A DNA stretch of 29,523 bases, taken from a virus (taxonomy: Duplodnaviria; Caudoviricetes). Under the pieces are notes generated by a model. That model saw only the letters and a list, made by a program, of their open reading frames with translations. It was not told the DNA's origin and did not search any database. Position numbers and translations under genes: made by a program. The DNA lies in the IMG/VR virus record IMGVR_UViG_3300032237_000566, positions 1-29,523 of that record. One strand, 5' to 3'. Shown here in pieces: positions 6,277 through 27,935 of the stretch. How positions within the stretch are numbered: position 1 is the first letter of the stretch; every line of letters starts with the position of its first letter.

Positions 6277-6665
6277 GATACCTCTGTTCTTCCGCCGCCG
6301 ATGTCTCGACTGTTTACATATTGACTGCTGTACTTGTTCATGGCCTGTTCTTGTTCCCATGTTTCCATGACCACATGGCGGCAAATATTTTGGAACCAAC
6401 GATCCACAATGTCAGCGTCCGCATCATCGGGTTTCATCATGTAACCGGCTTTGACCAAGCGAGCCACAAAGATATCGTTCCAGTCTAGTTCAAATGCACC
6501 TTGATGCAAGTTGTTGGGATCTATGTCCATGCGAACAATGCTCACATAGGGCTCTTTGTTTTCTGTAGCAAGTTCTTTTTCGGTCTTCTCTGGTGCTCGA
6601 GGCTTGGGTTCGGACCGAACTTTTACTGGCTCAGGCTTCTTGCGAAATCGATCAAATAGTCCCAT
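6273..6665 (-). CDS. Hypothetical phage protein
   Basis: Starts MGLFDRFRKK at a TGATG overlap with the queE stop. Confidence 0.7.
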   Translation of the reverse strand: MGLFDRFRKKPEPVKVRSEPKPRAPEKTEKELATENKEPYVSIVRMDIDPNNLHQGAFELDWNDIFVARLVKAGYMMKPDDADADIVDRWFQNICRHVVMETWEQEQAMNKYSSQYVNSRDIGGGRTEVS

Positions 6666-7504
6666 CAGGTGCCCCATTCGTTTTTAAACAGTGGAACCTG
6701 GAGTCGGTCTGAGTATCTCCAACCTTTTCGCATGGCCATTTCTGCCACTGATCGATTATTAAGATTGTACACCCGCTCAACGCCACCCACAGGCATGACA
6801 TAAACAGGACCTGTAAAACCCGCTGTACGGTATTCCGACACTGCACGTTCTGCATCTGCTAGATCCTGTTCTGTTGCAATTACCAATTTTAAATAGGTAT
6901 AGCCAACTTGCTCATATTCGCATACCACTTCGGGTCGAATGGCCTCCTCCCACCGCTCACCTGATCCAGGAAGTTTGGCACTGACACTGAACGTGATTTC
7001 TCGCTGTGCTCTCCATCGCAGTAGATACTCTTTGAACTCTGCTGTCAACGGTTGGGTGCCATTGGTCTCAAATGTAATTTCTTTGAGACGGTGCATACTG
7101 TCGTGATCCAGCAAGTCTGGATAGGCACGTTGCCAGCCTAGCAGTGGCTCACCGCCTGTGATCACAAGATGCTCTTCTTCCCAACGACGATGTGGAAGTA
7201 TTTGCATGATGCGATCCACAATGGCATTGGTTTCCAGCATGGGACTCAAGTCTCGGAATCTTGGATCCCAAGACGCATAACTATCACAGCCTGTGGAGAC
7301 CAAGGGCAATTGATTGTAGTCTCGGAAATCAAACACACGTTCGGCAATGGCATCACGCTCCACGCTCATTTCGCCACGTGGCATGCCAAAGCCACCACAA
7401 GTGAAGTTGCACCCAAATGTTCTCAAGAACACACTAGGCACACCCATATACCGGCCTTCTCCTTGCACACTATAAAACAGTTCTGCTATTTTGAGTTTGC
7501 TCAT
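6665..7504 (-). CDS. queE: 7-carboxy-7-deazaguanine synthase (radical SAM)
   Basis: ELFYSVQGEGRYMGVPSVFLRTFGCNFTC...GCDS, ITGGEPLL, FETNGT, SVSAKL, WRYSDRLQ. The Cys motif is expanded to CX3CX36C. Confidence 0.88.
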   Translation of the reverse strand: MSKLKIAELFYSVQGEGRYMGVPSVFLRTFGCNFTCGGFGMPRGEMSVERDAIAERVFDFRDYNQLPLVSTGCDSYASWDPRFRDLSPMLETNAIVDRIMQILPHRRWEEEHLVITGGEPLLGWQRAYPDLLDHDSMHRLKEITFETNGTQPLTAEFKEYLLRWRAQREITFSVSAKLPGSGERWEEAIRPEVVCEYEQVGYTYLKLVIATEQDLADAERAVSEYRTAGFTGPVYVMPVGGVERVYNLNNRSVAEMAMRKGWRYSDRLQVPLFKNEWGT

Positions 7505-8283
7505 ATTTTCCTTGCTTTTACCAACAAATGCCAACCTAGATATTCTTTCACTGCGTCTCGCATTTCTTCTGGCATGGCCGCAAACCACGGCTCCAGTTCA
7601 TATCTGCCTTGTTTGTAGGCTTCTACATTATACATGAAACAGTGGGCTTGACGCAACCTCTCAATATGGAATCGATCACCTAATAGAGCATACACTTCGT
7701 CATTTGAATAGGCTTGTGCAAACGGGCATCCTGCTTGTGCTTCAAATTGATCCAGGCCCTTGCGGATCATGCTGTACTTCCAGGAGTTTTTGGCATAGAC
7801 CAGGAATCTAAACTCGCCTTGCGGTTCCAACACATCATAGGCATTTTGAATCATGTTATCTATTCTGGGAAAGTGGTGCATGACACCGCAACTGTAAACC
7901 AGATCAAACTTGCCCAGGCCTCGATATGTTTTGGGATCACTTGCATCGCCATTCACAAATCGGCCTTCTAGTCCCTCGACTTCAAATCGGCGTTGTGCCA
8001 ATTCAATTGTTTTGTCACTGATGTCAATGGCAGTGTAGTCTGCACCATGCTTGGCAAATTCAGCCGCATCGGTTCCAATACCGCACCCAATTTCCAACAC
8101 ACGCTTGCCCTGCCAAAGATGAAATCCAGCAAAGTCTTTCATGTGTGGTTCCACACGATATCTGCGTTCAGTAATTTCCTGATAAAACTCCAAGGTGCCT
8201 ACTTCACTTTTGCCGTGCTTGATGTTGCAAGGCTGTGCGTTCCAATAACGCACAATGCGTTCTTCTAAATTGTGATCTGTCAT
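7501..8283 (-). CDS. Class I SAM-dependent methyltransferase
   Basis: VLEIGCGIGTD motif I, AIDIS motif II, GDA, FDLVYSCGVMHH. Confidence 0.88.
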   Translation of the reverse strand: MTDHNLEERIVRYWNAQPCNIKHGKSEVGTLEFYQEITERRYRVEPHMKDFAGFHLWQGKRVLEIGCGIGTDAAEFAKHGADYTAIDISDKTIELAQRRFEVEGLEGRFVNGDASDPKTYRGLGKFDLVYSCGVMHHFPRIDNMIQNAYDVLEPQGEFRFLVYAKNSWKYSMIRKGLDQFEAQAGCPFAQAYSNDEVYALLGDRFHIERLRQAHCFMYNVEAYKQGRYELEPWFAAMPEEMRDAVKEYLGWHLLVKARKI

Positions 8284-11161: not shown

Positions 11162-11164
11162 CGC

Positions 11165-12040: not shown

Positions 12041-12490
12041 TTAGCCTTCATAGATGGCCGAGTTAGCACCGTGTTCTGCACATTCTACCCTTACACAATA
12101 GCACCGATTGTCGGTCTTTTCTCTGATCAATTGATCAGCAAAGTTGAAAGCATGTTCTGCAAACTTCTCTGCACCCACACCATCAAAGACACGGATCTCT
12201 GCCAGACCCAAGGCTTCTAGTTCTTGAAATTTAGCCAAATGTGGATCTGCCTTGTCCAATGCCAACTTGTGATCAAAGTGATCTTCTAACCAGGCCTTGA
12301 GCAGTTTGAGTCCGCCAAAATCCACTGCCCAGTTTTTATCATCCAATGAATCACATCCAAATGTGAATGTAAACGCTAGACTGTAGCCATGTAGCAAGTG
12401 ACAGTGACTGTGATCAGCGTTGGGTTGACGGAATACTGCACTGAGGCCAATGTTGTGTCCATAGTGTTTTGTCGAGTAATATTTTGCCAT
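12041..12490 (-). CDS. queD: 6-carboxytetrahydropterin synthase / PTPS family
   Basis: SHCHLLHGYS, VDFGGLK..K.WL...FDHK, GAEKFAE, VECAEHGANSAIY. Strong AGGAG RBS. Confidence 0.85.
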   Translation of the reverse strand: MAKYYSTKHYGHNIGLSAVFRQPNADHSHCHLLHGYSLAFTFTFGCDSLDDKNWAVDFGGLKLLKAWLEDHFDHKLALDKADPHLAKFQELEALGLAEIRVFDGVGAEKFAEHAFNFADQLIREKTDNRCYCVRVECAEHGANSAIYEG

Positions 12491-12538: not shown

Positions 12539-12588
12539 GCGGGACGATGCCGATAGGCCGCTGAAAGGAATATTTATGTAGTTGCAAA

Positions 12589-13272
12589 CTAGCCAACTCT
12601 TTTGTAGTGCCTGTTGACATATTCTACAAATTCTTGTTGGGCTCGTTGATGCGCATCAAACCACAGGCCATGCACTTGATTGGCTAGATCATAGCAATCA
12701 CTCAACTCAAACCATTCTATCATGCTGTTGTAAAATTCTCGGTCAAGTGTGGACTGATACAAGCAGTCTACATTTATAGTTTTCTTTTTGACATGAAGAG
12801 AAGCGTCTCCTTGGGCTTTGGCATTAAACTGTTGCACTTGTTGTTTGAATTGTTCGGGGGTGTGATGGTTTAAATTGCTGTTGAGTTTGAAATATCCACA
12901 CAAGGCCATGTCAGGATCAACGGCCAATACTAGATTTTTATCTATACCATCGATTTGACCCCAAGCATGATCAAATGCCAGCACACTGTCAAGATCTTCC
13001 CGGTAGAGCCATTCCATCCATAACCAATTGGTCCAGGATCGTGTAGCAGGATAAATTTGTGTGCGAAAACTTTCTAGTTTGCTGTGATTGTCAAGAAAAT
13101 TTATGCGTCTAGACGGATCCGGTATTTTTTTAAATCTAGGTTCAGCCAAGGGAGTGAGTTCAAATTGAAAACAAGGATCCAACAACGCCAGCCATCTCAC
13201 ATGATTTCCAAATCCACCAGCGGGTGCGGCCACTGCACAATGTAAACACGATGAATGTTTGACTTCAATCAT
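12589..13272 (-). CDS. Hypothetical protein (possible P-loop/sulfotransferase-like fold)
   Basis: 227-aa ORF. N-terminal APAGGFGNHVRWL glycine loop; no firm family assignment. Confidence 0.6.
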   Translation of the reverse strand: MIEVKHSSCLHCAVAAPAGGFGNHVRWLALLDPCFQFELTPLAEPRFKKIPDPSRRINFLDNHSKLESFRTQIYPATRSWTNWLWMEWLYREDLDSVLAFDHAWGQIDGIDKNLVLAVDPDMALCGYFKLNSNLNHHTPEQFKQQVQQFNAKAQGDASLHVKKKTINVDCLYQSTLDREFYNSMIEWFELSDCYDLANQVHGLWFDAHQRAQQEFVEYVNRHYKRVG

Positions 13273-13280
13273 TTTGATAG

Positions 13281-14147: not shown

Positions 14148-14961
14148 CTTGCATCCAAACTCGATGATGCTGTTTCAACTCGTCTAGGTTGTCCACAGCC
14201 GGTGATTCAATAAATTCGGCCAGCGCACGATCCTGAGACCAGGCAGTTTCCCACACATGATTGTTGAGATCCCATGCACTGTTGGGGTATCTTGTGTCTT
14301 GATACTTGTAGACCTGTACTTGACTTGCTGTCTCGGTAGTATTGTGTGCCACAGTAACAAACAACGCACCTGGTTGCCATTCAATCATGGTACCTGGATA
14401 CACAGCCATCCAACAGGCACCAATGTTGTACTTTTCATCATCTGGTATCATGCTGATTTTTTCCTGTGCTGGAACAAGTTGTATGCTGCCATTTTCAAAT
14501 GTGAACCAGGTAATTTCATCTACAGTGTTGATGCCAATTTGGTCGTATACCCCGGCATGTGCCACAGGAATATGTTCTATATCCAAAAATACATCCATGA
14601 TCACGCCTGGCGTGGCATTGACTGTGTCTTGCCTATGCTCCGCCAATGTCATGTGTTGTGTGTCAATGGGAAATGCACAACCAACATGTTGATCAAACAA
14701 AATAGTTTGATTTTGGTACACAGGCCATGTTTCCAAAATATGACTGTTGTTTAGTCCTGAACCGTCACGATCAAACGTCATGCCATGATAAGGGCATTGT
14801 AGATGTGCGGTGGCACACTTGGCTATGCGGCTGTTTTGATGCGGGCAGATGTTGCTCAGCAGAGTAAAGGTTCCTGTGTTCACAATTGATACTCTGTAAT
14901 TGTATTGTGCCAAGGGAACCACATGATCAAGAGCAATATCTTGTGTCAGGGCTAAAAACAT
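14137..14961 (-). CDS. Rieske [2Fe-2S] non-heme iron oxygenase alpha-subunit-like protein
   Basis: NICPHQ...QCPYHGMTF (CxH...CxxH Rieske motif), DIEHIPVAH (DxxH-x4-H mononuclear Fe site), and distal QD. Confidence 0.85.
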   Translation of the reverse strand: MFLALTQDIALDHVVPLAQYNYRVSIVNTGTFTLLSNICPHQNSRIAKCATAHLQCPYHGMTFDRDGSGLNNSHILETWPVYQNQTILFDQHVGCAFPIDTQHMTLAEHRQDTVNATPGVIMDVFLDIEHIPVAHAGVYDQIGINTVDEITWFTFENGSIQLVPAQEKISMIPDDEKYNIGACWMAVYPGTMIEWQPGALFVTVAHNTTETASQVQVYKYQDTRYPNSAWDLNNHVWETAWSQDRALAEFIESPAVDNLDELKQHHRVWMQDAV

Positions 14962-15365
14962 CAGTCGGGTTGTTGGTAAGTGTCAGTTTTGTAATTGGCT
15001 TGTCCGGGTATCACACCACGCACACCGCCCACAGGATCAGGAGTATCTCCGTGTGTTCTCGGTATTAAATGCACATGTGGATACATCACAGTTTGTCCTG
15101 CGGCTGTGCCCATATTTAGTCCAACATTAAACGCATCGCACTGATTGTTTTGCACCATTTGACGACCGGTCAGCAGGGCCATGCCCATGGCCACCACAAT
15201 GGATTCATCTGTGTTGGCACGCGGAACAAACAACAGGTGACCTTGTGCCACAGGATATGCATCGCGGAACACGGCTATGTGAGGATTGCTGAGTTCGGGC
15301 ACTGTGTTGGTCCAAGGTGCTACTTTGCCATCCTGTGCGGCTTTTAATGTTGCATAAGATATCAT
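14961..15365 (-). CDS. HIT family nucleotide hydrolase
   Basis: DAYPVAQGHLLFVP, FNVGLNMG.AAGQTVMYPHVHLIPR, PVGGVRGVIP. Confidence 0.9.
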   Translation of the reverse strand: MISYATLKAAQDGKVAPWTNTVPELSNPHIAVFRDAYPVAQGHLLFVPRANTDESIVVAMGMALLTGRQMVQNNQCDAFNVGLNMGTAAGQTVMYPHVHLIPRTHGDTPDPVGGVRGVIPGQANYKTDTYQQPD

Positions 15366-15556: not shown

Positions 15557-16294
15557 TTACCTCGGTGCAAAATCTTGTTGCAGTTTGATGTTGTCAAAAA
15601 ATTCCTTCTTCACGCTTTGATCAGATTTGAAGGCTCCACGCAGTACGGTTGTTTGGGTAAGACTACTATGAGCCATAATACCACGATTCTCACAACATCC
15701 ATGGGTAGCCTGGATATAAACAGCAACGTCTTTGCTTCCGGTTGCAAATTCGATTTCACGAGCAATATCCATACACAGTTCTTCTTGGAGAGTGCCACGT
15801 CGGGCACACCATTGGGCGATGCGAGTGTACTTCGAAAGACCAATGAGCGTGGGACCAGCAATGATTCCAATATAAGCCACACCCGTAACAGGTTGGTGAT
15901 GATGGCTACACATACTCTTAAGTTCACTTCGCACAACCAACATTCCGTCATAAGCGGCGTCTGTGTCGTTGGGAAACGCCGTAGCATTAGGGCTCGCCTC
16001 GTATCGGCCAGCCATAATTTCATTGAAGTACATCTTGGCCAAGCGTCGTGCTGTGCCTTTGGAGTTGGGATCATTTTCTCTATCAATTAGTAGTGTATCA
16101 AGCACCCGTTCAAATGCTTCTGTGGCTTCATTGATCAGTTGTTCTTTTTGTTCTTCGTTAACATAGTCACTGACATTGTCACCTGCCCAGAAACGTTTGT
16201 TGTCTCGTTTCATCTGGAAGCGGATAGCATCTGCCAAGTATGCAGACTCGTAGCCTTTGTTGTCGATGTTGTCTAGTGATACTGGTTCTGTCAT
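15557..16294 (-). CDS. folE: GTP cyclohydrolase I
   Basis: TARRLAKMY, SMCSHHHQP, IGLSKYTRI, LQEEL, ATHGCCENRG. Confidence 0.95.
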   Translation of the reverse strand: MTEPVSLDNIDNKGYESAYLADAIRFQMKRDNKRFWAGDNVSDYVNEEQKEQLINEATEAFERVLDTLLIDRENDPNSKGTARRLAKMYFNEIMAGRYEASPNATAFPNDTDAAYDGMLVVRSELKSMCSHHHQPVTGVAYIGIIAGPTLIGLSKYTRIAQWCARRGTLQEELCMDIAREIEFATGSKDVAVYIQATHGCCENRGIMAHSSLTQTTVLRGAFKSDQSVKKEFFDNIKLQQDFAPR

Positions 16295-16295: not shown

Positions 16296-16892
16296 TTAAT
16301 CCTTGATAGTGATAGTTCTTAAATCTGGATAGGCAACATAGTATGGTTCAGGACACTGTTCTTTGAGTCCTTGTAACAGTGCTAGTCCTTGTATGGCCTC
16401 TTCTGGTGTGGGTTTATAATGATAGCCAACTTGGAATTCTTTTTGCTCCTGCCAGGGTGTGATATTTAGATCGCGACCATCATACCTCATGAGAATTATT
16501 GCATCATATGCTGTCTTGTCATCAAGTATTATAGCACCACCACGGCCTATATGTAAAGGCTTTGTATGCCCAAAACTCAAACATTGCATGGTTCCAGGTC
16601 GATACATGTTCTTTTGCAGTCGTCTAGCACTATCCCAAATGCGTGTATCCACAAACGGATACTCACCTACCCAACGTTGCCATGCATGATCCAAATACTC
16701 ATACTTGATGTTCAACTTGTGCATGAGCATGGGCATACTCAAATAGGTATAAGGAGTCATCTTCAATGACCGGACCTGATCGTATCGCAAACACAACTCA
16801 ATGGCGTGTGTACAGCAATCGGTCATAATGGCATATGGTGCTCCACAAAACTCGGCCAGTTCCTGTTCGAACTTTAGGATCTTATCGAACAT
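16296..16892 (-). CDS. Short DegT/DnrJ/StrS-family PLP aminotransferase-like protein
   Basis: FEQELAEFCGAPYAI..DCCTHAIELCL, WDSA, CLSFGHTKPL..GRGGAI (PLP lysine), GYHY. About 198 aa. Confidence 0.75.
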   Translation of the reverse strand: MFDKILKFEQELAEFCGAPYAIMTDCCTHAIELCLRYDQVRSLKMTPYTYLSMPMLMHKLNIKYEYLDHAWQRWVGEYPFVDTRIWDSARRLQKNMYRPGTMQCLSFGHTKPLHIGRGGAIILDDKTAYDAIILMRYDGRDLNITPWQEQKEFQVGYHYKPTPEEAIQGLALLQGLKEQCPEPYYVAYPDLRTITIKD

Positions 16893-17826
16893 ACCAGTTC
16901 CAGGCATGTTGAATCATGGCATCCAGATCATGGTGTCTCCATGCACCTGCCACCAGATTAAACTTGTCTGCACTGGCAGTGAGTATGGGCGGATCACCTG
17001 CTCGTGCCGCACCAAACTGTATCGTGGGCATTTTACCAGTAACAGCCTGGGCACGTTCTACTATTTGCTTGACTGAGGTTCCTGAGTTTGATCCGAGATT
17101 GTAGACGCCTGCAGGGATTTTATGATACAAAGACAAAGCGTGGGCTCGGGCGATATCATCCACATGCACGTAATCACGAACACAAGTACCATCATCAGTA
17201 GGATAATCAACTCCATATATTTTAAATGTCCCTTCGTCTCTGGTGGCTTCTAACAATCGAGCAATCACATGTGTGGCACCTGGCTCTTGGCCATGACGAC
17301 CTTGAGGATCTGCGCCACATGCATTGAAGTATCGGAAACTCACATAGTCAAGTCCATAGGCTCGATGATAAGACTTCAAGATCATGTCGATCATGAGTTT
17401 GCTGTCTCCGTATGGGCTCACTGGCTCACAAGGGTCTACTTCGTGACAGGGATTCATGATAGGCTCGCCATAGGTGGACGCCGAGGAACTGAAGATAAAT
17501 TTAGTCCGGGGCATGGCATTACATAAAAAGTCCAACAAATGCAAAGTCTTGACCACGTTGTTGGTGTAGTAGTCCCCAGGATGCGTGATACTTGGGCCAA
17601 CCAGGCTGGTGCCTGCACAATGTACAATGGCTTCTGGGCGCACATCTAACAGTTTTCTATAACTTTGATCGCTGTCAAAGTCACATTGTACAAAATCAGT
17701 AAATGCACCGGTCAACCCTGAGTGGCACGGTCGACGATCAATGCCCAGTACCTGTTGCCCTGCATCTGCTAGGCGCAATGCAATTTGTCCACCGATGTAG
17801 CCCGCGGCTCCTGTTACAACAATCAT
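16882..17826 (-). CDS. galE: UDP-glucose 4-epimerase-like extended SDR
   Basis: VTGAAGYIGG, FSSSASTYG, SPYGDSK (YxxxK), FRYFNACGA, GTCVRDYVHVDDIARAH. Confidence 0.9.
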   Translation of the reverse strand: MIVVTGAAGYIGGQIALRLADAGQQVLGIDRRPCHSGLTGAFTDFVQCDFDSDQSYRKLLDVRPEAIVHCAGTSLVGPSITHPGDYYTNNVVKTLHLLDFLCNAMPRTKFIFSSSASTYGEPIMNPCHEVDPCEPVSPYGDSKLMIDMILKSYHRAYGLDYVSFRYFNACGADPQGRHGQEPGATHVIARLLEATRDEGTFKIYGVDYPTDDGTCVRDYVHVDDIARAHALSLYHKIPAGVYNLGSNSGTSVKQIVERAQAVTGKMPTIQFGAARAGDPPILTASADKFNLVAGAWRHHDLDAMIQHAWNWYVR

Positions 17827-18443
17827 TTTATTTCCGTATGAGTTAAATCGTTTGTTATGGCTGATAGAATTTGTTCAGCAACATAATCACATTCCAACAC
17901 ATGGTCATCGCCATAGGTGTCCTGTACTTGTTGCATGGTCTTGGTACCATTGAAATTTCTATAGCGTATTTTGCTCCTAGTTAGACCAATCTTGGCTTCT
18001 AGTATTTTAATGTGTGTGATTTCTTGAGCGATTAGATCTATGCTGAACTTGCTGGCCACTTTGCTACCAGTGTAGGTGTTATGGAAAACTCTGGGATGGT
18101 CCATGCTGGTACTGCTGAGCCAAACATATTTACCGTGCTTGCGTTGATGTGCAAACTGTTTGAGCAAGAACAAGTTTGAGATATAGTTGACCCTGATCTG
18201 ACTATACTGGTGTTCCCAGGCATTTTTCATGAATCCTTGATAACTGCCTTGGTTGTGTCCAGCACAGTTTATTAGTATATCAATGTCTCGAAAGTCACAC
18301 TCAAACACACGCTCTGGATAGTCAAGGTCAAGATCTTTGCTAGACCATCCTGCAACTTCATAGTCTTCACTATCGGCCATCTGGTGAAACAAGTTACTGC
18401 CTATTCCACCAGTGGCACCAATTATCAAAACACGTTGTGCCAT
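17823..18443 (-). CDS. Short-chain dehydrogenase/reductase
   Basis: IIGATGGIG, DILINCAG, WLSS, YTGSK (YxxxK). Confidence 0.8.
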   Translation of the reverse strand: MAQRVLIIGATGGIGSNLFHQMADSEDYEVAGWSSKDLDLDYPERVFECDFRDIDILINCAGHNQGSYQGFMKNAWEHQYSQIRVNYISNLFLLKQFAHQRKHGKYVWLSSTSMDHPRVFHNTYTGSKVASKFSIDLIAQEITHIKILEAKIGLTRSKIRYRNFNGTKTMQQVQDTYGDDHVLECDYVAEQILSAITNDLTHTEIK

Positions 18444-19645
18444 TTTTTTTCTATTTTAACCACTTGATATTTTTCATGCGGCACATGATCGCGATAACGA
18501 TTTCCCGAACGATTCCACTGATCACCCTGACCGGTAATAATATCAACAATCCGATCAACAGTCCCATTGTTCCAATCACTAATAAGGCCCATGTTGTGAT
18601 GAGGAGTCTGCAAAAGATTACACATTTTGTGATAGGCATCGTCTATACTCCAAGGCACATAGAGCCGGTTAGGGTCATTTGCAAAAGTTTCAGGGAAACT
18701 GCGATAAGCAGGATATAGAACGTTGGCTCCGAGGGTATCTGCTTCACTGACAGTGTTCGACACCCAATCTTGTAGAGCACAATTGAACAGCACACGAGTA
18801 TTGTTAAGGTGAGCATAGTATTCGTTCTTGCTTATGTTATCGTAGATTTGCAGTTGGCCTTCGGCCTCCATACGGCGGGCACGAGCAACATACTCTGGGT
18901 TGTTGCTTCGCAAAGGTCCGCCTGAGTATATGGCAAACTCACATGGCTCCGTGGTGAGTTCACCATACATCTCAATAAGGTCCATAAAGAAGCCAGGTTG
19001 TTTCTCTTGATCAAAACGTGCCGCAAAACCAACTCGTCGCGGACGATCACCAAACGGTTTGATGTTGGCTTTGCCACCGATACGTTCAAGAACTTCATCT
19101 TTCCCAAACGCAAGGCCTGATATGTTGTAGATTGGAGCAGTCCAACCAGCAATCCGCATGTGGGCAACCATTTCTTCATTGGTAGCAAGAACTCCTGTAA
19201 CAAAGTGATTGACCATCTTTTCATATGTGCTCATCCATCCTGCCATGCCCCACACATGCACAAAGTCATCGGGATCGATGGCCTGTGCCAAACAGCGTAT
19301 CCATACTTGTGGGCGTTGTTCTGTAGGAATCTGATCCATGATGTACGGCAGTGATTCAATGCCCGGTTGGAACATGTCTTCAAAGTAGATCACGTCCTCG
19401 CCAGTGACCGCACCGTTCTTCATCATTTGAACCAAGTTCATCATCTGGCTCATGGCAAAGAAACTGCGACCATGTGCATCCAGCACTTGACCTACAGATA
19501 TGGCCTGTGTGTTGTCGATAGTGGTGCCAGGCACATACACAACGTCAAGACCTCTGCGGTCAAACACACGCCGGTTCCACTCGGTCAGTTGTAGTGTGTA
19601 TCGGGCTTCATAACTTTCCAGCCCCATGTAGTACAGTTTCCTCAT
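18425..19645 (-). CDS. GT-B fold glycosyltransferase (GT4 / phage DNA glucosyltransferase-like)
   Basis: RVGFAARFDQEKQP, YYAHLNNTRVLFNCALQDWVSNTVSEADTLGANVLYP...SFPE: nucleotide-sugar-binding C domain. Start at ATGA overlap 19645. Confidence 0.8.
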   Translation of the reverse strand: MRKLYYMGLESYEARYTLQLTEWNRRVFDRRGLDVVYVPGTTIDNTQAISVGQVLDAHGRSFFAMSQMMNLVQMMKNGAVTGEDVIYFEDMFQPGIESLPYIMDQIPTEQRPQVWIRCLAQAIDPDDFVHVWGMAGWMSTYEKMVNHFVTGVLATNEEMVAHMRIAGWTAPIYNISGLAFGKDEVLERIGGKANIKPFGDRPRRVGFAARFDQEKQPGFFMDLIEMYGELTTEPCEFAIYSGGPLRSNNPEYVARARRMEAEGQLQIYDNISKNEYYAHLNNTRVLFNCALQDWVSNTVSEADTLGANVLYPAYRSFPETFANDPNRLYVPWSIDDAYHKMCNLLQTPHHNMGLISDWNNGTVDRIVDIITGQGDQWNRSGNRYRDHVPHEKYQVVKIEKKWHNVF

Positions 19646-19866
19646 GCACGGAACCCTGCAAAGCGACGTGAGTCTTCGTTCCACATGTTCTTGGCATTCT
19701 TGCCCGCATGCCACTTGTTGAACTGTTGCCATGCATAACTTTTGAAGTTATACAGGTCCGACTCGTTGTAACGATATCCATAGTCCTGACAGAACTCCAA
19801 GAACACTTCGAGATCGTTAAAGATCTCAGCCACACGTGGGTTGGATTTGAATGATGGCTTGGCCAT
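19642..19866 (-). CDS. Hypothetical phage protein (74 aa)
   Basis: GAGGA RBS, its own promoter upstream, and translational coupling to the GT-B gene. Confidence 0.8.
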   Translation of the reverse strand: MAKPSFKSNPRVAEIFNDLEVFLEFCQDYGYRYNESDLYNFKSYAWQQFNKWHAGKNAKNMWNEDSRRFAGFRA

Positions 19867-19924: not shown

Positions 19925-20651
19925 TCCAGTTGTTGACCGATTGTTTGATTTCTTGCGCAAACAATCGATTTCCTTGTATGTTTGGGTGCGACCATGTGAA
20001 CAATTTATTTTTTTCTAATATTTTCCAGGTGACATTGAACAGTTTGTGTATTTCGTTGACCACTGCATTTGATGGCTTGCCCGATAATTCGAAATGTTCA
20101 GGCGGACCGTATTCAGGTATAACCATGCCCTTCAGCCATCTGTGTGCAACATCAGCCGGCCATCCATAGAAACTATTTAGGCCGCAACGTTGCCCAAGAA
20201 AATTTTGCCAACTTGGATGTATCACTGTGATATTATCAAAAGATTCACACTCAACATCGGTGTGAGCACCTATCAAGGCTACTGGTACATCAAGACTGTT
20301 TAGTCGACGATAAAACTGTTGTTCTAGAGTTTTTACTATGTCAATAGGATCTGTACTGGTTAAAAATGCACAAGCAAACTCCACTTGTGACACCTTGGAA
20401 ATTTTGTGCCCGTCATCTAGTGAATTAGCAGTGACAAACACAATTCCAAAAGGTGCTAATTCTGGATTGTGTTGCATAAACTCTTGGGCCGCTTGCAGTT
20501 GGTCAAGATTGCTTTTGGCGTACAATGCCAGCGAAGTATAGTCAGTCAACTCTAACTCTTGAGCAAGATTGGTTTTGACAGGATCGTCGAGACCTTGTAT
20601 TGATTCAAAACTTTGGACCGCCCAACTGGGTCCAAGGTATAGAGTATGCAT
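19908..20651 (-). CDS. Hypothetical protein, SGNH hydrolase-like
   Basis: N-terminal LGPSWA and C-terminal SHPNIQGNRLFAQEI resemble SGNH blocks I and V. Confidence 0.55.
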   Translation of the reverse strand: MHTLYLGPSWAVQSFESIQGLDDPVKTNLAQELELTDYTSLALYAKSNLDQLQAAQEFMQHNPELAPFGIVFVTANSLDDGHKISKVSQVEFACAFLTSTDPIDIVKTLEQQFYRRLNSLDVPVALIGAHTDVECESFDNITVIHPSWQNFLGQRCGLNSFYGWPADVAHRWLKGMVIPEYGPPEHFELSGKPSNAVVNEIHKLFNVTWKILEKNKLFTWSHPNIQGNRLFAQEIKQSVNNWIDTYQ

Positions 20652-21103
20652 TAAATTTTGATTGAAAGATTTGGGCGAGCGATTTCATATTTGATCAAGG
20701 CGCCATTCTCACCGTCTTCAGCAACCTCAATCCATACAGCACGATCTGGATATCGTGCGGCAATTTCAGCATACAAGTCATCAGCCATCATTTCGCAACT
20801 CTTGTAGTCCAGTTGCAAGATACCGTCTTTGTACAAATTTTCTAACCAGCGTTTGAATTGAATAAACTCAATGTCGCGATCGTTGTGTAACACATCAATC
20901 CACACTCTAAAGTGAAATATGTGACGATGTGGTGTGCCCAAAAAACTCACGTCATACTCATCACCTGTGGCCAGAGCAGGATCAGTGGCAGCCGCAGGAT
21001 AGCAATGTATGCCTTCTTTGCGGAACGTGACCCAGATTTTGCGTTCTGCCTGGTTCATGATTCTTGTGGCAGTTTCGTTTAGTGCCTGTTCTCTTTGATT
21101 CAT
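20651..21103 (-). CDS. Divergent QueD/PTPS-like T-fold protein
   Basis: GIHCYP, HRHIFHFRVWI, DRDIEFIQFKRWL, SCEMMA, IEVAEDGENGA map onto the PTPS/QueD pattern (H...HxH...DF..K...E.A...V.E...A). Confidence 0.7.
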   Translation of the reverse strand: MNQREQALNETATRIMNQAERKIWVTFRKEGIHCYPAAATDPALATGDEYDVSFLGTPHRHIFHFRVWIDVLHNDRDIEFIQFKRWLENLYKDGILQLDYKSCEMMADDLYAEIAARYPDRAVWIEVAEDGENGALIKYEIARPNLSIKI

Positions 21104-21492
21104 GCTTTTAGTGCTTCCATGGTAATGATTTTTCCAATCTCCTCACCAACATCTTGATCACCTGAGATCACATGCAGTTCATAAATGCTGTCGCCTGAAC
21201 GGCGGTCTTGTCGGCGAGTTTCAATCACTGTGCCACCATTGGCGCGATACACTTCAAATCTAATGCCAGTGGCACTGATTCGACTGGTTTCCTCTTGCAT
21301 GGGAATATCTTCGCGATCATGGTGATCGCTCATGCTCCATGTGACCAGGCCTTTGATCATTCTTTTAAACATATTGGGTCCTTTGGTTGGATACTTTCTT
21401 GTTGATGCAACTTGTGGTGTTCCATAGATCTTGTTCATTCTACGTTGTTTGGGCTGAACTGCGGCGCCCATGATTGCGGGATACGTTGACAT
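21100..21492 (-). CDS. Hypothetical phage protein
   Basis: 130-aa ORF with TAATG/ATGA overlaps at both ends. Confidence 0.7.
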   Translation of the reverse strand: MSTYPAIMGAAVQPKQRRMNKIYGTPQVASTRKYPTKGPNMFKRMIKGLVTWSMSDHHDREDIPMQEETSRISATGIRFEVYRANGGTVIETRRQDRRSGDSIYELHVISGDQDVGEEIGKIITMEALKA

Positions 21493-22028
21493 TACAGTGT
21501 CTCGTCCTTGGTGTATTGGGACCAGTCAGTAAATGCCGATCTCTTTTGCAATGCATGTATGCTATGACACCACACACCGGGATTTGTCGCTCGAAAGTCT
21601 CGATCGTCCAGTTTGAGTGTGGCATTGTAGCCCAGTTGATTGATATAAGGCAACTTGACCGAAATCATGGGAATAAAGTTGTGCTTCTCTGTCAAGCCTG
21701 ATTCCAACAATCCTTCAACACAGGCAATGTCAATGTCCAAGGTACACACTATGTCATGGTCTAGCACAGCGTAGATCATGCCTTCCCAGGGAGCCCAACC
21801 TGCACCATCATTCACACTCAGGCGAGGAAAACTCATGTTGGCACCAAAGTACACATGTGTGATGTGCTGACTCTCATCCAGCAATGCCCATGAGTCTTTG
21901 ACAATACGTACTATCTCATGATAGTCTTGAACTCCAATCACAAACAGAGTTTTTTTACCGTGTGCAGGAGTGTGTTCAACTTCGGTGCCAACAAAAAATT
22001 TGGCATTATCGTGTTCAGGTCTGTTCAT
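21492..22028 (-). CDS. Hypothetical protein coupled to the transglycosylase gene
   Basis: 178 aa (GTEVEHTP..GKKTLFV, HVYFGAN, TNPGVWCH); overlaps the end of the dpdA-like gene. Confidence 0.75.
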   Translation of the reverse strand: MNRPEHDNAKFFVGTEVEHTPAHGKKTLFVIGVQDYHEIVRIVKDSWALLDESQHITHVYFGANMSFPRLSVNDGAGWAPWEGMIYAVLDHDIVCTLDIDIACVEGLLESGLTEKHNFIPMISVKLPYINQLGYNATLKLDDRDFRATNPGVWCHSIHALQKRSAFTDWSQYTKDETL

Positions 22029-23583
22029 GCTCTAATTGATCTAATGCTGATGTGTCTAATTGTACACTATCATCATTTGGTTGTACAGTCTCAGGTTCTT
22101 CAAATTCAAACAATGCATTGAATTGTGTTCTAGCATTTTTGGTCTTTTTGCCTTTGAATCCTCGTGTGCCCACAATCTCCATCCAATAGGTGTCATACAT
22201 TTCGATTATGGCTTCGGCGGTGTCGCGATCTGGTGCGGCAAAGATTGCTTCCACAATGTCTTCGAACCGGGCGTAGTCACCTGTACTACGACGCATCATG
22301 GCCGGATGCTCTCCTGCATCAAAACGTCGATTGGCTTCTTGTACTGCTGTCAAGTGCATCCAAACATTGTGACCCATGAGCAGTGCATATGAGAAACTGT
22401 CCCAGGATGTTTTGCCTTCTTTGCCAATCTTGTTTAGGTCGCCGGGCCGGTAGATACAGATGTCTTTCATCTTGAGCAGATTGCTGATTGGACTATCCTC
22501 CCAACGAGGATAGATGCCGTCTGCTACTACGCCTGTTCCCCAGTCACGTGTGTCTGTGGAATACTTTTTGTCGTCGGCTGAAGGAGCCATGCGATACGAC
22601 CATTTTGAGTCGTGTTCAAACACATTTTCATAGTAGACCTGTCCGTTTGCTGTTGCAAGGAACGGTGAGGCGCAGTCAAACGAGATTGTGAAAGCGGGAT
22701 TGACATATTTTCTTACAGCCCTTTGGATTACAGTTAATAAAACAGCCCACTCCAGTTTGGAGGTTCCCAAGAAGTGCATCCAATCATGTCGGCCCTCTTG
22801 AAGTAAATTGTCATAGCGTAGTGCTACCAGTCTGCGGAGTACCAAGTGTACATCACACATGTTTTGTCCACCCATGGACCAACCATTGAAGTGAGTGTCT
22901 GGGTACTTTGCAGGGTCGCAGTATTCCTTCATGGTCTCATACCATTGATCTGCTGACGTATGGTTGTCACCTTGCAATACGTTCAAAAACCGGGCACCAC
23001 CATTTGCCACACCTCGACGATGCTTCATAAAGTACTCGTTGTTGAACTTGGTGGCATCTACGGCTTCTTGCAGTGTGGTAATTTGGCAAGCCGCTGATGC
23101 TTTCTTGTCATGGATCACCCAGGTGGGGATATCCAAGATCATGCCATAGTCAGCCACGTTATCCAACCAGTTTAGGATAAGACTTCTTTTCTTTTGAGCC
23201 TTGGCACAACCTGAGTTGGCTCGCCAATCACCTTCCCAAAGACCCTTGGCAATCTGGAACCCTCCAGAGTCTCCCAGTATAAACGTTCCAGGCTCTCGGG
23301 ACCGCACCATGTCTTCTGACCAGTCTTGTTTGGCAAGATCAAGATTGGCATGACCACCTGAGTACAGACTCCACTTGTAAGGGAAAAGAGCCTTGGTACT
23401 GTTGAGCCAATTAAGTTGTTCCATGTCCGTAAGGCCCTGAGGAAATCTCGCTGGATCCACATATGGTTCATTCCTTTGCTTGCCTATGAATGTGGCATAA
23501 AAGCCGCTGATGGCCGGCAAAAAGATTGCATAATCTGATTGCTTGGCAGTCAAGTTGTCTTGCACAACAGAGTCAGTCATCAT
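22015..23583 (-). CDS. dpdA: tRNA-guanine transglycosylase-fold protein, probable DNA deazapurine transglycosylase (DpdA-like)
   Basis: GDSGGFQ, ILDIP, NVLQG, SMGG, HFLGTS, SFDCASP and distal HN: the TGT catalytic motifs. No CxCxxC Zn site. Located with folE/queD/queE and coupled to the clamp gene. Confidence 0.75.
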   Translation of the reverse strand: MMTDSVVQDNLTAKQSDYAIFLPAISGFYATFIGKQRNEPYVDPARFPQGLTDMEQLNWLNSTKALFPYKWSLYSGGHANLDLAKQDWSEDMVRSREPGTFILGDSGGFQIAKGLWEGDWRANSGCAKAQKKRSLILNWLDNVADYGMILDIPTWVIHDKKASAACQITTLQEAVDATKFNNEYFMKHRRGVANGGARFLNVLQGDNHTSADQWYETMKEYCDPAKYPDTHFNGWSMGGQNMCDVHLVLRRLVALRYDNLLQEGRHDWMHFLGTSKLEWAVLLTVIQRAVRKYVNPAFTISFDCASPFLATANGQVYYENVFEHDSKWSYRMAPSADDKKYSTDTRDWGTGVVADGIYPRWEDSPISNLLKMKDICIYRPGDLNKIGKEGKTSWDSFSYALLMGHNVWMHLTAVQEANRRFDAGEHPAMMRRSTGDYARFEDIVEAIFAAPDRDTAEAIIEMYDTYWMEIVGTRGFKGKKTKNARTQFNALFEFEEPETVQPNDDSVQLDTSALDQLEHEQT

Positions 23584-24302
23584 TTGCTTTGTGCTGGCAA
23601 TAGGTAGTTGTAAACTGCAATACCACTGTCAACAGTGATTTCAGCCACACCGTCATCGCTGATGCGTACTTTCTTGTCGCCAGTTAGATCCATGATACTC
23701 ACAAACTGTTTGGCAGGCCAAGACCATGCACGTTTGAGTTGCCCGCTGATGCCAGGGTGGAACACAAAGTTGCCTGAGTGTGTGGAATGATCACCAAAAA
23801 AGAACTTGAGATCGCCGCCGTCTGTTTTGGCCTGGAAGTTGGCTTCTTCTGCATTGGCACTCATCTGCCACTTCATGCGTTGGATAGCCGCATTGGTCGG
23901 CTCAAACTCAATGTGCCAGGTCACAGGACGAACCTTGGCAGTTTTTAGTTTTTCACTCACCACACCCGATGTCATGAATCGATAGTTGTTTTTGAAGTCG
24001 CCAATTTTGTTTTCAAAGTTGATGCCATCCGGTTCTCCTGTTGACCCCTTGGTAATACCAAGTTTGGCATCTTCGCGGTACTCTTGCAAGTTCAACAGGG
24101 TTTTTAGTTTGCCCAGGTTAGGCATACCAAATGTGCCCACAAAGTCTGCCACAGGGTTGTGGAAGTTGCCGCGAATCACAACGCTGAGGTCTTCTGCCAG
24201 GCCAACAATGTCAGTCTTGCTGGTGTCTCCAACGATCTTGACCAGGTCAATACAGCCCAGATCATAAGTGTGTTCTACCAAGTCTAATAAGTAATCTCTC
24301 AT
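23580..24302 (-). CDS. DNA polymerase sliding clamp (T4 gp45-like)
   Basis: 240-aa alpha/beta two-domain pattern (FGMPNLGKLKTLL...YRFM...KVRISDDG..EITVDSG...Y.YLLPA), near the DNA polymerase, with AGGAG RBS. Confidence 0.7.
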   Translation of the reverse strand: MRDYLLDLVEHTYDLGCIDLVKIVGDTSKTDIVGLAEDLSVVIRGNFHNPVADFVGTFGMPNLGKLKTLLNLQEYREDAKLGITKGSTGEPDGINFENKIGDFKNNYRFMTSGVVSEKLKTAKVRPVTWHIEFEPTNAAIQRMKWQMSANAEEANFQAKTDGGDLKFFFGDHSTHSGNFVFHPGISGQLKRAWSWPAKQFVSIMDLTGDKKVRISDDGVAEITVDSGIAVYNYLLPAQSK

Positions 24303-24321
24303 ATGTTTCTCCTAAGTGTTA

Positions 24322-24350
24322 AGTATACAGGTTTCATTCAGTTTTCACAA
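24322..24350 (-). promoter_or_regulatory. sigma70-type promoter (TTGTGA-N17-TATACT) for the clamp-dpdA unit
   Basis: TTGTGA at 24350-24345, TATACT at 24327-24322, followed by AGGAG and ATG 24302. Confidence 0.6.
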
Positions 24351-25278
24351 GTACTTTGGCTAAAGTCTGCCCGCCTCGCAGGCTTGCAAGGTCCCCGGGT
24401 TTGCGGAACTCCAACCAACTTACATCACCCTTGCCATCGTGTGCCGTGACCAATTCAAATCCTGTTTCGTTGGCATGCTGTTCGATCAGCCGGCGAGGAG
24501 TATACAGCATCCAGGTGTGTTCGGCTCGGATCACCCCGTGTGCCAGATTGCAGTTGTTGTAGGTCATAAGCACACTGCCACCGGGTCTAAGTTTTTGATA
24601 AAATTCTGACAGGAATTTGCAAATTATGGGCATGGGTTTGTGATTAAAGTAATGATAGGCAAATATTGTGCCAAATTGGTTGTTGGGCAACTGATTCAAT
24701 ATAGGACCATCTGCCCAGTCGTTGATCACATACTCACGCAGTCTACGTTGATACTCTGGTGTGAACTTGCTGACTGCAGGTCGCATCAGTTCCTGATCAT
24801 GGTCTACCACATACAACGGATCCAACGGTACCATGTCTTCAATGTAGGTTTCCAATCCCGGCCTCAAAATCATACCCGGCAAGCGCCAATCGGTTAAATT
24901 TTTCAGTCGAGTGCGCAACATCAAATCATCATCGTCGTCAATTCTCATGCGTCTATTTAGAATAACATCTGGAGAATTATGTACAAATTCCTCTCTATAC
25001 AAATATAAACTATTGTCAAGATATTCTTGTTCACGCTGAATGATCTCAGATTTAAGATTTTGTTTTAGTTTTTCTATTTCTCCAGTGTACTTTGCAATGC
25101 CACTGGTTATTTCATTGAATACTCTTGCAATACTGTTGCTGGCACTTTGATCTTGATCAGCATGCTCGGTCACAACATGAGTTATGTGATTTAACTTGTT
25201 CGTGGCAATATCGCATTCACGAGCAACGTCAAGTGAATCTAACAAATTCAAGTATGCAACAATTTCGCTTAGTTTCAT
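24334..25278 (-). CDS. Coiled-coil plus degenerate class I methyltransferase-like protein
   Basis: Helical N-terminal about 100 aa; C-terminal LPNNQFGTIFAYHYFNH...FYQKLRPGGSVLMTY. Motif I is degenerate (ILRPGLE). Confidence 0.6.
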   Translation of the reverse strand: MKLSEIVAYLNLLDSLDVARECDIATNKLNHITHVVTEHADQDQSASNSIARVFNEITSGIAKYTGEIEKLKQNLKSEIIQREQEYLDNSLYLYREEFVHNSPDVILNRRMRIDDDDDLMLRTRLKNLTDWRLPGMILRPGLETYIEDMVPLDPLYVVDHDQELMRPAVSKFTPEYQRRLREYVINDWADGPILNQLPNNQFGTIFAYHYFNHKPMPIICKFLSEFYQKLRPGGSVLMTYNNCNLAHGVIRAEHTWMLYTPRRLIEQHANETGFELVTAHDGKGDVSWLEFRKPGDLASLRGGQTLAKVLVKTE

Positions 25279-27935
25279 TCGAAGTCAAACAAACTGGTAA
25301 ATGTATTTTCTGTGTTGGTTGCTGACGCCAAGTCCCATTCCAACACACCCAACAGGTTATCAACCTTGCCGTCTACAACTGTGGCTTCCATCTCCGAATC
25401 ATCAAATGGCAATGCAGTAAACCAAGCAGGTAGTCGTTGTTCATCGGTGGGATAACCGATGCTGGTCCAACCCAAGGCATTTGATTTGAGTTTGCAAACA
25501 ATAGTTTTCATACCGTCTACAATCTGCATTGAGTAGTTGTCACCGTTCATTCGGCGCATGTTGTTCCAGTTGATAGCGGCCCGCACATGTCCTGGCATGT
25601 TGGCTTTGCCCAGGCGTGTTTCTTCTGCCTGGTACTTGGTCAAGTTATTCACACGCTTGGGCGAACCTTTTTCCCAGCCCGGACGCTCTTTGAACTCGTA
25701 TTTGAATTCTCTAATGCGTTCCACAATCTCATCTCGACCCGCACCAGCCAGCAGTTTATTTAGAATTTCCAAAAGGAAGTCTTGAATTACTCGGGGGGTG
25801 TCTGATCGCTTTAGATCCAGGCCAGTGGCCTTGGTTTTGCCAATTGAGCCATTCACATCCAGTCGCTTGCCTTCAATATCAATGGCATTGACAGCATAAC
25901 GCTTCTTGGTAATGAACAAGCCACGGTCTGCTACTGTTTCACGACCGCACTTGATCAATGAACCCATGTCTCTGGGACAATGAAAAGCCTGTTCCATGAA
26001 ACCAGGGAAACTCGAGTTGACTTGTTCAGCAAGGCTGTCATACAGTTGAATACAAGCCTCTTTTGACCATGCCATGCGCCCTTCTTCGATTTCTTTCTTG
26101 AGCGCCGGCCATGCACTGAAGTAACACGAGTCTGTGTCACCATATATAACTGCCGTTCCCACATGGTCGTATTCGCCTGTGATACACTCATTAAGATAAG
26201 CGTCCATGTGCCGGGCAATTGAACGACCAGTAAGTGTTGTTGACTGTCCAATACGTTTGTCAAAGAACCTACAGCCCGGGTTAAGAATAGCGCCGTAGAG
26301 ACTGTTGAGGTTAATCTTTTTAACCAGTTGTCGTTTGTCCCAAAAAGCAATTTCTTTAGCATCTCGTGCTTCCTTCTTTCGAGCCTGAAGTTCTTGACGT
26401 TCACGATACCAACGTTCCAGCAAGCCAGGTATAATGCCCTTCTTCTCAAATGAGAGAATAGTACCATTAGCAGTGAGTATCCAAGGTTGGTTTGAGTCAA
26501 AGATTATGTTCCAGATCTCCGCGGCTGAGTGTATGCTCTCTTTGCCGTTCTCCCAGTCTATGGTAATCTCTGTACCACGCTCTTGATTCATCACGGCTGT
26601 GTATTCTAAACTGGCAAAGATACCTTCCCAGGCAGCCGCAAAACTCTGACCCTTGGCCATGTTGGCTCGGATCAGTCGCTCAGTCATGGTCTGGCGCAGT
26701 TGTCCTACCACAGTCTCTGGACCCATGTTCATGGCACGAATTGCCGACGGATACAAACTGTTGATGTCAACTGATCCAATCCACTCATGCACACCTTTTT
26801 TGGGATAGGCCACATAAGCACCTGCGGCCTGTGTGTCTTCATCTGTTAGACGTTGCTTGCGATTGGGCACAACCATGCCACGTTCATGTGCTTCGTTGAT
26901 GATGGCCTGCTCAGTCACTGCCACAGCACCCATAGTGGTTTGAAGCAGTACTGTGTTGGCGTGTGCCAGTTCGTTGGCCAGATCCAAGAAACGTAGTTTT
27001 TTGTCCAGTTTGCCAATCAAGGCAGTATCTTGCCTGTTGTATTCAATGAATGTACGAAAGTGTTGATTGTACAAAGTATCCAGTGTGCCTTCAAACTGTG
27101 TCTTGCGCTCGCCCAGTTCGTATTCACAAATGGCATCCAAACTATAACTGTGACGTTCTTCATAGGTGTACTTGCGATACAGTTGCATATAGTCCATATG
27201 CACACGACCAATCAAGTCATAGGTTTCGTTTTCGGCACCAAAGCGTTCGAACACCCGTTTCTTGGGCAATTGTCCCCACAAACAGAATTTACGTGTGTCA
27301 TCTTTTGATAGCACTCGCACACATCGGTTTACAGTATAGGGAATGTCATAGCCTTCTGAGTTCCAACCTGATAACACATCTGCATCGTCAATCAGGTCAA
27401 GAAATGTTTTGATCATGTCTGCTTCGTCGGCAAACAAGATGGTATTTTCAAAATCCCGGACCAGTTCGTGTGCAGTCTCCCAACTGAGATGCCGGGGTGG
27501 TACTGCCAGTGTTACTAATTGATCCAGCCAGTCTAAGTAGACTGAAATCGCAGTAATGGGATTAAAAGGGTCTGATACCGGTGAGAAGCCGCGATCTTTA
27601 TCAAACGCCACCTCAATGTCAAAAAACGCTGTGTGAAGTTCAGGCGCATCTTGATCTTTGTAGTTTTCTTCAAGGCATCTAAAGATTGGATTGATGTCGC
27701 TTTCATAAAGTGGCTTATGGCCATGAACGCGGACTTCCTTGCGGAACTCTTTGTTGTTTCTTGTGCTGAATCTTGCGACAGGTGTGCCATAGATGCTTTG
27801 AAATTTACCTCGGGGATCATCATAGTAGAAAACGTAGTTTGCTGGATATTCCCTATAGACTCGTTCGCCATTGCGGCGTTCTACTGTGTGAATGCGATCG
27901 TGTTCACGATCAAATAGTGCGTCAATATAACTCAA
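25275..27935 (-). CDS. Family B DNA polymerase (T4 gp43-like)
   Basis: Exo motifs FFDIEV, GWNSEGYDIPY, YNRQD; polymerase motifs DINSLYPS, KKINLNSLYG, YGDTDS, KKRY. TTG start after GGAG. Confidence 0.97.
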   Translation of the reverse strand: MSYIDALFDREHDRIHTVERRNGERVYREYPANYVFYYDDPRGKFQSIYGTPVARFSTRNNKEFRKEVRVHGHKPLYESDINPIFRCLEENYKDQDAPELHTAFFDIEVAFDKDRGFSPVSDPFNPITAISVYLDWLDQLVTLAVPPRHLSWETAHELVRDFENTILFADEADMIKTFLDLIDDADVLSGWNSEGYDIPYTVNRCVRVLSKDDTRKFCLWGQLPKKRVFERFGAENETYDLIGRVHMDYMQLYRKYTYEERHSYSLDAICEYELGERKTQFEGTLDTLYNQHFRTFIEYNRQDTALIGKLDKKLRFLDLANELAHANTVLLQTTMGAVAVTEQAIINEAHERGMVVPNRKQRLTDEDTQAAGAYVAYPKKGVHEWIGSVDINSLYPSAIRAMNMGPETVVGQLRQTMTERLIRANMAKGQSFAAAWEGIFASLEYTAVMNQERGTEITIDWENGKESIHSAAEIWNIIFDSNQPWILTANGTILSFEKKGIIPGLLERWYRERQELQARKKEARDAKEIAFWDKRQLVKKINLNSLYGAILNPGCRFFDKRIGQSTTLTGRSIARHMDAYLNECITGEYDHVGTAVIYGDTDSCYFSAWPALKKEIEEGRMAWSKEACIQLYDSLAEQVNSSFPGFMEQAFHCPRDMGSLIKCGRETVADRGLFITKKRYAVNAIDIEGKRLDVNGSIGKTKATGLDLKRSDTPRVIQDFLLEILNKLLAGAGRDEIVERIREFKYEFKERPGWEKGSPKRVNNLTKYQAEETRLGKANMPGHVRAAINWNNMRRMNGDNYSMQIVDGMKTIVCKLKSNALGWTSIGYPTDEQRLPAWFTALPFDDSEMEATVVDGKVDNLLGVLEWDLASATNTENTFTSLFDFE

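Follow-up and report, generated by a model that had tools for sequence, protein, structure and literature searches.

The stretch analysed here, 29,523 nucleotides (nt) of IMG/VR virus record IMGVR_UViG_3300032237_000566 (hereafter the window), encodes a 522-aa DpdA-type guanine transglycosylase beside a sliding clamp, and its closest described counterparts are other DpdA enzymes and phage proteins that bind the clamp. The DpdA3 enzymes of phages CP220, phiST and immuto_2-6A are 258–264 aa long and tail-less, and these phages have a measured 100% replacement of guanine (Cui 2023, PMC10516641). DpdA2 of Vibrio phage nt-1 (464 aa) gives a low modification level and works in E. coli without phage partners (Hutinet 2019, PMC6884629). 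The bacterial DpdA (bDpdA) retains a zinc site and needs the DpdB ATPase (Gedara 2023, PMC10164549). Among clamp-binding proteins, the alpha-glucosyltransferase of phage T4 co-purifies with the clamp gp45 and has been proposed to act during replication (PMC13216743). Clients of gp45 include the polymerase gp43, through its tail SLDFLFG, and T4 ligase, through a loop LDFLF that was found by its resemblance to the polymerase tail and binds gp45 with a dissociation constant of 10.7 uM (PMC6212786). A deazaguanine system in phage PA5oct, and PCNA-type clamps in the same phage group, have been described (Iyer 2021, PMC7824862).

The window enzyme has in common with the DpdA3 systems of Cui 2023 the fold of tRNA-guanine transglycosylases (TGTs), the catalytic aspartates, and a FolE, QueD, QueE and DpdL gene set without QueC, but it is about twice as long as the measured DpdA3s and is tailed. 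It is similar in size to nt-1 DpdA2, to which it has no significant sequence match. With bDpdA (structure 7ui4) it shares the fold and three invariant aspartates; bDpdA differs in its zinc site and in its need for DpdB, and no DpdB-like partner turned up in the window, where none was sought. The likeness to the gp45 clients lies in a short hydrophobic motif that imitates the end of the polymerase and sits in a flexible part of the protein. Here the motif consensus differs and binding is predicted, and the clamp, unlike gp45, is a distant PCNA-fold protein without a sequence match in the PDB. The T4 alpha-glucosyltransferase is likewise a phage DNA modifier that binds the clamp, although it glucosylates, whereas base exchange is proposed for the window enzyme. 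We found no report of a clamp-bound DpdA in the open-access literature, and the word 'clamp' is absent from the available text of the Cui 2023 preprint. A possible precedent, Mom of phage Mu with the beta clamp, was not borne out, as 'clamp' had 0 occurrences in the available listing of the Mom preprint.

We concluded that the 522-aa protein is a DpdA-type enzyme with the TGT fold that likely swaps guanine in the phage's own DNA for a 7-deazaguanine base, and, from conservation and modelling, that its tail quite probably binds the clamp. The initial annotation had proposed that the enzyme carries a clamp-binding peptide and modifies DNA at the replication fork. This interpretation was partly supported: clamp docking is backed by conservation, covariation, relocation of the motif and a weak pass of a complex model, and modification at the fork is an inference. 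The features concerned are as follows.

22015..23583, minus strand: long DpdA-type guanine transglycosylase, 522 aa (TGT barrel at about residues 12–450, flexible tail from about residue 473)
22102..22128, minus strand: TQFNALFEF, residues 486–494 of the enzyme, proposed clamp-binding short linear motif
23580..24302, minus strand: sliding clamp of PCNA fold, 240 aa, with a stop codon that overlaps the DpdA start
24308..24350, minus strand: sigma70-like promoter (TTGTGA-17-TATACT) and AGGAGA ribosome-binding site of the clamp gene
24334..25278, minus strand: 314-aa gene, methyltransferase-like, that separates polymerase and clamp (PF13489 at E 5.6e-4, short of the curated cut-off)
25275..27935, minus strand: family B DNA polymerase, ending NTFTSLFDFE (25307–25278; PF00136, E 3.9e-34; phrog_262)

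Homologs were drawn from 297 locus rows; once fragments and duplicates were removed, 240 distinct enzymes remained that were complete, with at least 450 aa and a closed frame. The loci (designated by L numbers) were picked by likeness to the query proteins and are mutually related, and enzyme relatives beyond about 30% identity are thinly sampled. Residue and promoter counts refer to 70 representatives, clustered under 80% identity, and counts of downstream neighbours to 184 loci with at least 3 kb downstream. Against 50,697 phage records, strong matches to the enzyme occurred only in 11 Pseudomonas records (PA5oct, Paride, MIJ3 and their kin, at about 36% identity), Sinorhizobium phage Phosso and Vibrio phage 2.275.O; 2 of the 15 matches were weak Staphylococcus ones. 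A metagenome search with the enzyme matched 7,484 of 8,000 scored candidates, and scans of viral contigs with single Paride or Vibrio proteins found nothing. By gene content and homologs the window belongs among the PA5oct-like jumbo phages. The genome record consists of the 29.5-kb window, and statements on gene content are limited to that fragment. The available text of the Paride paper (PMC10761892) holds nothing on DNA modification.

The identity of the enzyme is supported by its fold. The AlphaFold2 (AF2) model had a mean predicted local distance difference test score (pLDDT) of 88.9, and Foldseek matched it to the Z. mobilis TGT (E 1.5e-8). The VIA structure search returned aTGT 1iq8 (Z 19.0, root-mean-square deviation (rmsd) 4.3, 294 aligned residues) and the Salmonella DpdA 7ui4 (Z 16.0, rmsd 4.3, 305 aligned); its top five matches were TGT-family chains, and the next unrelated barrel scored Z 11.5. 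Searches of Pfam, PHROG, NCBIfam and the PDB, with the single sequence or a profile, gave no name for the protein. It had been claimed that the enzyme keeps the TGT catalytic motifs and lacks the CxCxxC zinc site of tRNA enzymes, and both statements hold: all 70 representatives have D105 (in DSGGFQ), D151 and D303, and none of the 240 distinct homologs carries CxCxxC. By motif order, the three aspartates would correspond to D95, D130 and D256 of bDpdA. Loss of the zinc site was rejected as a mark of a DNA enzyme, because the Salmonella DpdA retains it (PMC10164549).

Within the DpdA enzymes, the PA5oct homolog is QCG76197 (36% identity, tblastn E 6e-72), a protein that Cui 2023 (PMC10516641, Data S1) assigns to DpdA3. 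A hidden Markov model of the enzyme family found no match at E up to 1 in the genomes of phiST, CP220 and immuto_2-6A, and matches to the short DpdA3s were weak (direct scores under 4 bits, hhalign probability 39%, fold E 9.7e-3). A 464-aa nt-1 protein, equated with DpdA2 by organism and length only, ranked 7th in a viral fold search (E 7.9e-9), above the phiST DpdA3 (E 9.7e-3). Because the short, tail-less DpdA3s barely match and the nt-1 protein ranks higher by fold, we class the enzyme family as a separate long clade that is filed under DpdA3.

The tail motif is conserved far beyond what was seen in other proteins of the same loci. TQFNALFEF had been described as a C-terminal segment resembling the end of the polymerase, NTFTSLFDFE. 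Both peptides are present, but the enzyme motif is followed by 28 more residues, of which 9 are acidic and none basic. We built a score matrix from polymerase C-termini only and applied it to the last 70 residues of each enzyme. Scores of at least 8 bits were reached by 158 of 240 enzyme tails versus 1.1% of 2,792 other open reading frames (ORFs) encoded at these loci. Medians did not exceed 2.4 bits in any of the 83 other families that have at least 5 members. The strict pattern F..[LF]F[DESTG] was found in 150 of 240 enzymes versus 0.47% of the other ORFs; a broad pattern, written after seeing the data, matched 216 of 240 versus 197 of 2,792. Conservation of the motif among homologs, which had been proposed as a check, was thus confirmed residue by residue (F488 in 50/70 representatives, L/F491 in 55/70, F492 in 62/70, D/E493 in 48/70), with a family consensus of FxxLF[DE] or FFEF. 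In the alignment of representatives these residues stand between gap-rich flanks. In the AF2 monomer, pLDDT was under 50 over residues 473–480, 482–485 and 492–508, with block means of 44–49 over 471–510, and such low confidence is expected of a linear motif. No other clamp clients emerged among the neighbouring families, where the best median was 2.4 bits for tails and 7.1 bits for whole proteins (polymerase fragments). Six loci (L170, L172, L173, L181, L186, L199) have MW where other tails have the LF core (e.g. DMWG), which to judge by sequence is perhaps a variant docking motif and not a loss. A second amphipathic helix lies at the tail end (residues 512–521, about 22021–22050, pLDDT block 77). 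It is partly conserved (L514 in 45/70, L517 in 40/70 and, also in part, E518) and may pack on the enzyme or bind another partner.

We compared each tail with the polymerase of its own locus, using the 225 loci with a complete polymerase and 2,000 partner shuffles at several clustering levels. At <80% clustering the observed likeness between tail and own polymerase exceeded that of every shuffle; at <70% p did not rise above 0.001, and the median p was 0.002 at <60%. An FF-type polymerase was paired with an FF-type tail in 20 of 22 loci, versus 4 of the 203 other loci, 2 of these 4 being pattern artefacts. The D[LIV]F type was shared by polymerase and tail in 18 of 18 loci, with 8 tail-only cases. 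Matched polymerase and tail motifs include LDEFFEF in both proteins of L204, DLFDW and DLFGW in Vibrio phage 2.275.O, and FNKFF and FKKFF in L269. In six loci picked for likeness, only 19 of 33 identical residues used the same codon, which argues against recent DNA copying. We therefore judged copying from the polymerase gene unlikely; the Vibrio pair, which shares 5 of 6 codons, nonetheless stays compatible with it. L285 and the L145 clade have an identical polymerase tail (KDRGFIDDLFS) and DpdA cores on different major branches, and both enzyme tails carry DIF; this pattern of sequences suggests gene exchange followed by motif matching.

The motif has also moved. Six enzymes (L061, L065, L071, L072, L101, L126) lost the internal motif and have a new LF at the C-terminus, and the Phosso enzyme also ends in GLF. 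On the core tree these six enzymes occupy up to 5 separate positions, yet their tails are mutually alike, and for that reason the relocations were not counted as independent; they may represent one event. Retention of the motif across proteins with 30–37% identity, together with its reappearance at the C-terminus after internal loss, suggests steady selection.

The complex modelling with a clamp trimer that had been proposed was carried out for the enzyme tail, with three clamp copies (a trimer being assumed) and enzyme residues 470–522. The enzyme tail passed weakly, with a score of 0.57 (runs 0.57, 0.58, 0.35) versus 0.02 for the best control, and a control with the clamp replaced scored 0.00. 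Contact agreement was at least 38% and partner pLDDT at least 42, but the model gave no interface. In calibration, the mark was reached by 116 of 157 solved pairs and 2 of 215 mismatched pairs; the range at 0.60 or under held only 18 of the solved pairs and both mismatches.

The clamp itself was identified by its model (AF2 pLDDT 93.2), for which the top Foldseek matches were all PCNA (E 9.9e-11, template modelling score 0.69). Phage homologs of the 240-aa protein are annotated as PCNA or sliding clamp, and searches of Pfam, NCBIfam and PDB sequences gave no naming match, only the unnamed phrog_12062. By its modelled fold, the gene product is a two-domain PCNA-fold sliding clamp, as had been thought.

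As the initial annotation stated, one gene separates the clamp from the DNA polymerase. This is the 314-aa methyltransferase-like gene, which is absent in Paride and in Vibrio phage 2.275.O. The claimed overlap of the clamp stop with the enzyme start, AAATGATG, is likewise present: the clamp TGA overlaps the ATG-ATG start of the 522-aa gene (ATGA, 23583–23580; junction AGC AAA TGA TG ACT, minus strand). No AGGAG-type site lies just upstream of the 522-aa gene start; the clamp gene has its AGGAGA site at 24313–24308. A clamp gene was found in 236 of 240 loci. Among these 236, a -4/-1 overlap with the enzyme gene occurs in 70, a gap of 30 nt or less in 125 and a gap of more than 150 nt in 100. 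In Phosso the enzyme gene is about 175 kb from the clamp, beside a primase and a helicase. Clustering of the enzyme gene with replication genes is thus the rule, and translational coupling is not. The coupling proposed for the window stands as an overlap there, but as a family trait it is incidental, and we rejected it as the key feature.

The sigma70-like promoter claimed before the clamp gene is also present (TTGTGA-17-TATACT, 9 of 12 matches). Promoter-like sites in the window alone were within chance (32 versus 25.5 ± 5.2 in shuffles). Across the representative loci, 48 of 70 have such a site within 90 nt of the clamp start versus 20 of 350 control stretches inside the polymerase gene, and 11 of 70 have one upstream of the enzyme gene. 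In many loci (e.g. L098, L126, L145, L204, L243) the region before the clamp gene contains CTAAATA, placed between the -35 and -10 boxes or close to them, although the window copy is without it. We take it to resemble the T4 late promoter TATAAATA, a likeness not counted as evidence.

In the explanation we favour, and which taken as a whole we regard as somewhat more probable than its competitors together, the modelled folds, the invariant aspartates, the gene order, and the conservation, covariation and relocation of the motif are observed, and substrate, product, binding and timing are inferred. FolE, QueD, QueE and DpdL would make the base from GTP. The enzyme would exchange it for guanine in duplex DNA via a covalent aspartate intermediate, with D303 as nucleophile and D105 as acid/base in a double displacement, by analogy with bDpdA. 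The tail peptide FNALFEF would dock in the clamp pocket used by the polymerase tail, the binding of the polymerase C-terminus to the clamp being extended from T4 gp43 (PMC6212786). Following the T4 example, the enzyme could bind an unoccupied ring subunit or use clamps that remain behind the fork. Such a tether would raise processivity and favour phage over host DNA, and on balance we lean towards the view that clamp binding matters for replication-linked modification.

A number of results weigh against this explanation. The gene overlap is confined to the 70 loci noted above, and 24 of 240 tails match not even the broad post hoc pattern. Eleven of 12 hand-picked motif-less enzymes keep all four catalytic motifs, so the tether would be dispensable in some lineages. 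The nt-1 DpdA2 has no tail motif. Because the short DpdA3s reach 100% replacement without a tail, full replacement needs none, and we rejected the tail as the cause of 100% replacement in all DpdA3. (Two of the three short-DpdA3 phages yielded no PF00136 polymerase; in phiST, L301, the polymerase region at about 11500–15350 is unannotated and holds two long ORFs in different frames.) In T4, binding of the alpha-glucosyltransferase to gp45 is not the main cause of the modification level, and expression strength mostly sets the glucosylation share (PMC13216743). The shuffle test was weaker at <50% clustering (median p 0.03, up to 0.15). Kin share traits, and a tree-independent covariation test, with 3 pairs per trait and none the wrong way, was underpowered and not significant (p 0.5 and 0.25). 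Polymerase and tail are discordant in L222, L266, L184 and L235. Lastly, since the modelling job was unlike the calibration set and solved PCNA–peptide complexes exist, the pass may come from likeness to these.

The alternative that best survives grants that the tail binds the clamp but makes this accessory: base exchange would follow replication, and the clamp would only gather the enzyme on phage DNA or make it somewhat more processive. The T4 alpha-glucosyltransferase, the intact catalytic motifs of motif-less family members, full replacement by the tail-less DpdA3s and the distant enzyme gene of Phosso all speak for it. We nevertheless consider it unlikely, as the motif is kept at 30–37% identity and reappears at the C-terminus when lost internally.

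A second alternative, which we find less plausible again, is that the FxxLF segment is a structural element or one for another partner (barrel packing, a dimer face, or another phage protein), its polymerase likeness reflecting shared ancestry and a simple hydrophobic pattern. AF2 does draw a helix at residues 484–491, and the second amphipathic helix, conserved in part, points to other contacts made by the tail; the complex score was weak and without an interface, and the tree-independent covariation was not significant. A packing element fits poorly, however, with a motif of low pLDDT in the monomer that sits between gap-rich flanks and relocates. In addition, the motif tracks polymerase variants on separate branches (L269, L285, Vibrio), and the score vanished when the clamp was replaced.

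That the enzyme is instead a TGT acting on host or phage tRNA is very improbable, because, although its best structural matches are tRNA TGTs that rank above bDpdA (an order that says little, as phage DpdA structures were not among the listed PDB matches), CxCxxC is missing from all 240 homologs, its gene belongs to a replication cluster that includes DpdL, which is associated with a DNA base, the window has no tRNA gene, and PA5oct DNA resists five restriction enzymes (PMC12191111).

In the explanation we favour, docking and replication-tethered exchange, the substrate would come from a pathway encoded in the window, where the following genes accompany the enzyme.

6665..7588, minus strand: QueE (phrog_2076, E 3.9e-51; QueE NCBIfam matches below cut-off)
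12041..12490, minus strand: QueD (PF01242, E 2.6e-13; phrog_2389)
15557..16294, minus strand: FolE, GTP cyclohydrolase I (PF01227, E 2.7e-39)
18425..19732, minus strand: GT-B-type glycosyltransferase-like gene, likely start near 19630 (PF00534 in 12 of 27 family members, not in the window copy)
20651..21103, minus strand: DpdL, proposed 7-carboxy-7-deazaguanine (CDG) decarboxylase and QueD paralog (LGTPHRHIF fits the LxxxHRHxF signature)
21492..22028, minus strand: conserved 178-aa protein; overlaps the DpdA stop by 14 nt

The window DpdL is 34% identical to the phiST DpdL (E 4e-16) and 58% identical to Paride_0117, which lies at the position of PA5oct QCG76199, listed as DpdL in Cui 2023 (PMC10516641); the gene is present in 177 of 184 loci. 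Because FolE, QueD, QueE and DpdL are present and the 29.5-kb fragment showed no QueC, 7-deazaguanine is the predicted base, as in phiST; by extension from Cui 2023, the base would be 7-deazaguanine or its precursor CDG. In Vibrio phage 2.275.O (L082, 11905–18931) the family member stands with QueF, YhhQ, a QueC-like gene and FolE, neighbours that point to a likely different base (preQ1 type).

The 178-aa protein occurs in 169 of 184 loci and has invariant GxExE and NPGVW-like motifs; it matched no Pfam family and gave only a weak glycosyltransferase-like Atlas lead. The GT-B-type gene is part of the DpdA/DpdL module in 148 of 184 loci; in Paride it comes immediately after the DpdA gene, and its product could decorate deazaguanine or another base. 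A galE-like gene (16882–17826) lies near it (18425–19732, minus strand). Between queE and folE (7501–14961, minus strand) are radical SAM/B12, two glycosyltransferase-like, methyltransferase, Rieske and PP-loop (SGGSDS) genes.

Cui 2023 (PMC10516641) treated 7-deazaguanine insertion as post-replicative, left open the route to very high substitution, and reported that DpdA3 or DpdA4 members did not work in E. coli. For one large clade of more than 7,400 protein clusters, of which PA5oct, Paride, MIJ3, Vibrio phage 2.275.O and Phosso are culturable members, a clamp tether gives a concrete and inexpensive test. The parts are known; what they form is a long DpdA clade with a likely clamp-docking motif, a feature that is real and well conserved. 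The reach of this finding is limited, as phage DNA modifiers bound to a clamp are not without precedent and the short DpdA3s achieve full modification without the tail. We would only tentatively suggest, with more doubt than expectation, that the very large PA5oct-like clade converts most or all guanines to 7-deazaguanine just behind the fork by an enzyme that rides the clamp through a motif coevolving with the polymerase tail, the clamp giving efficiency and phage specificity and the conserved neighbouring glycosyltransferase perhaps decorating the base. If the tether is real, it could yield a processive tool for making deazaguanine DNA, and for these phages it would mean a base-exchange enzyme built into the replisome.

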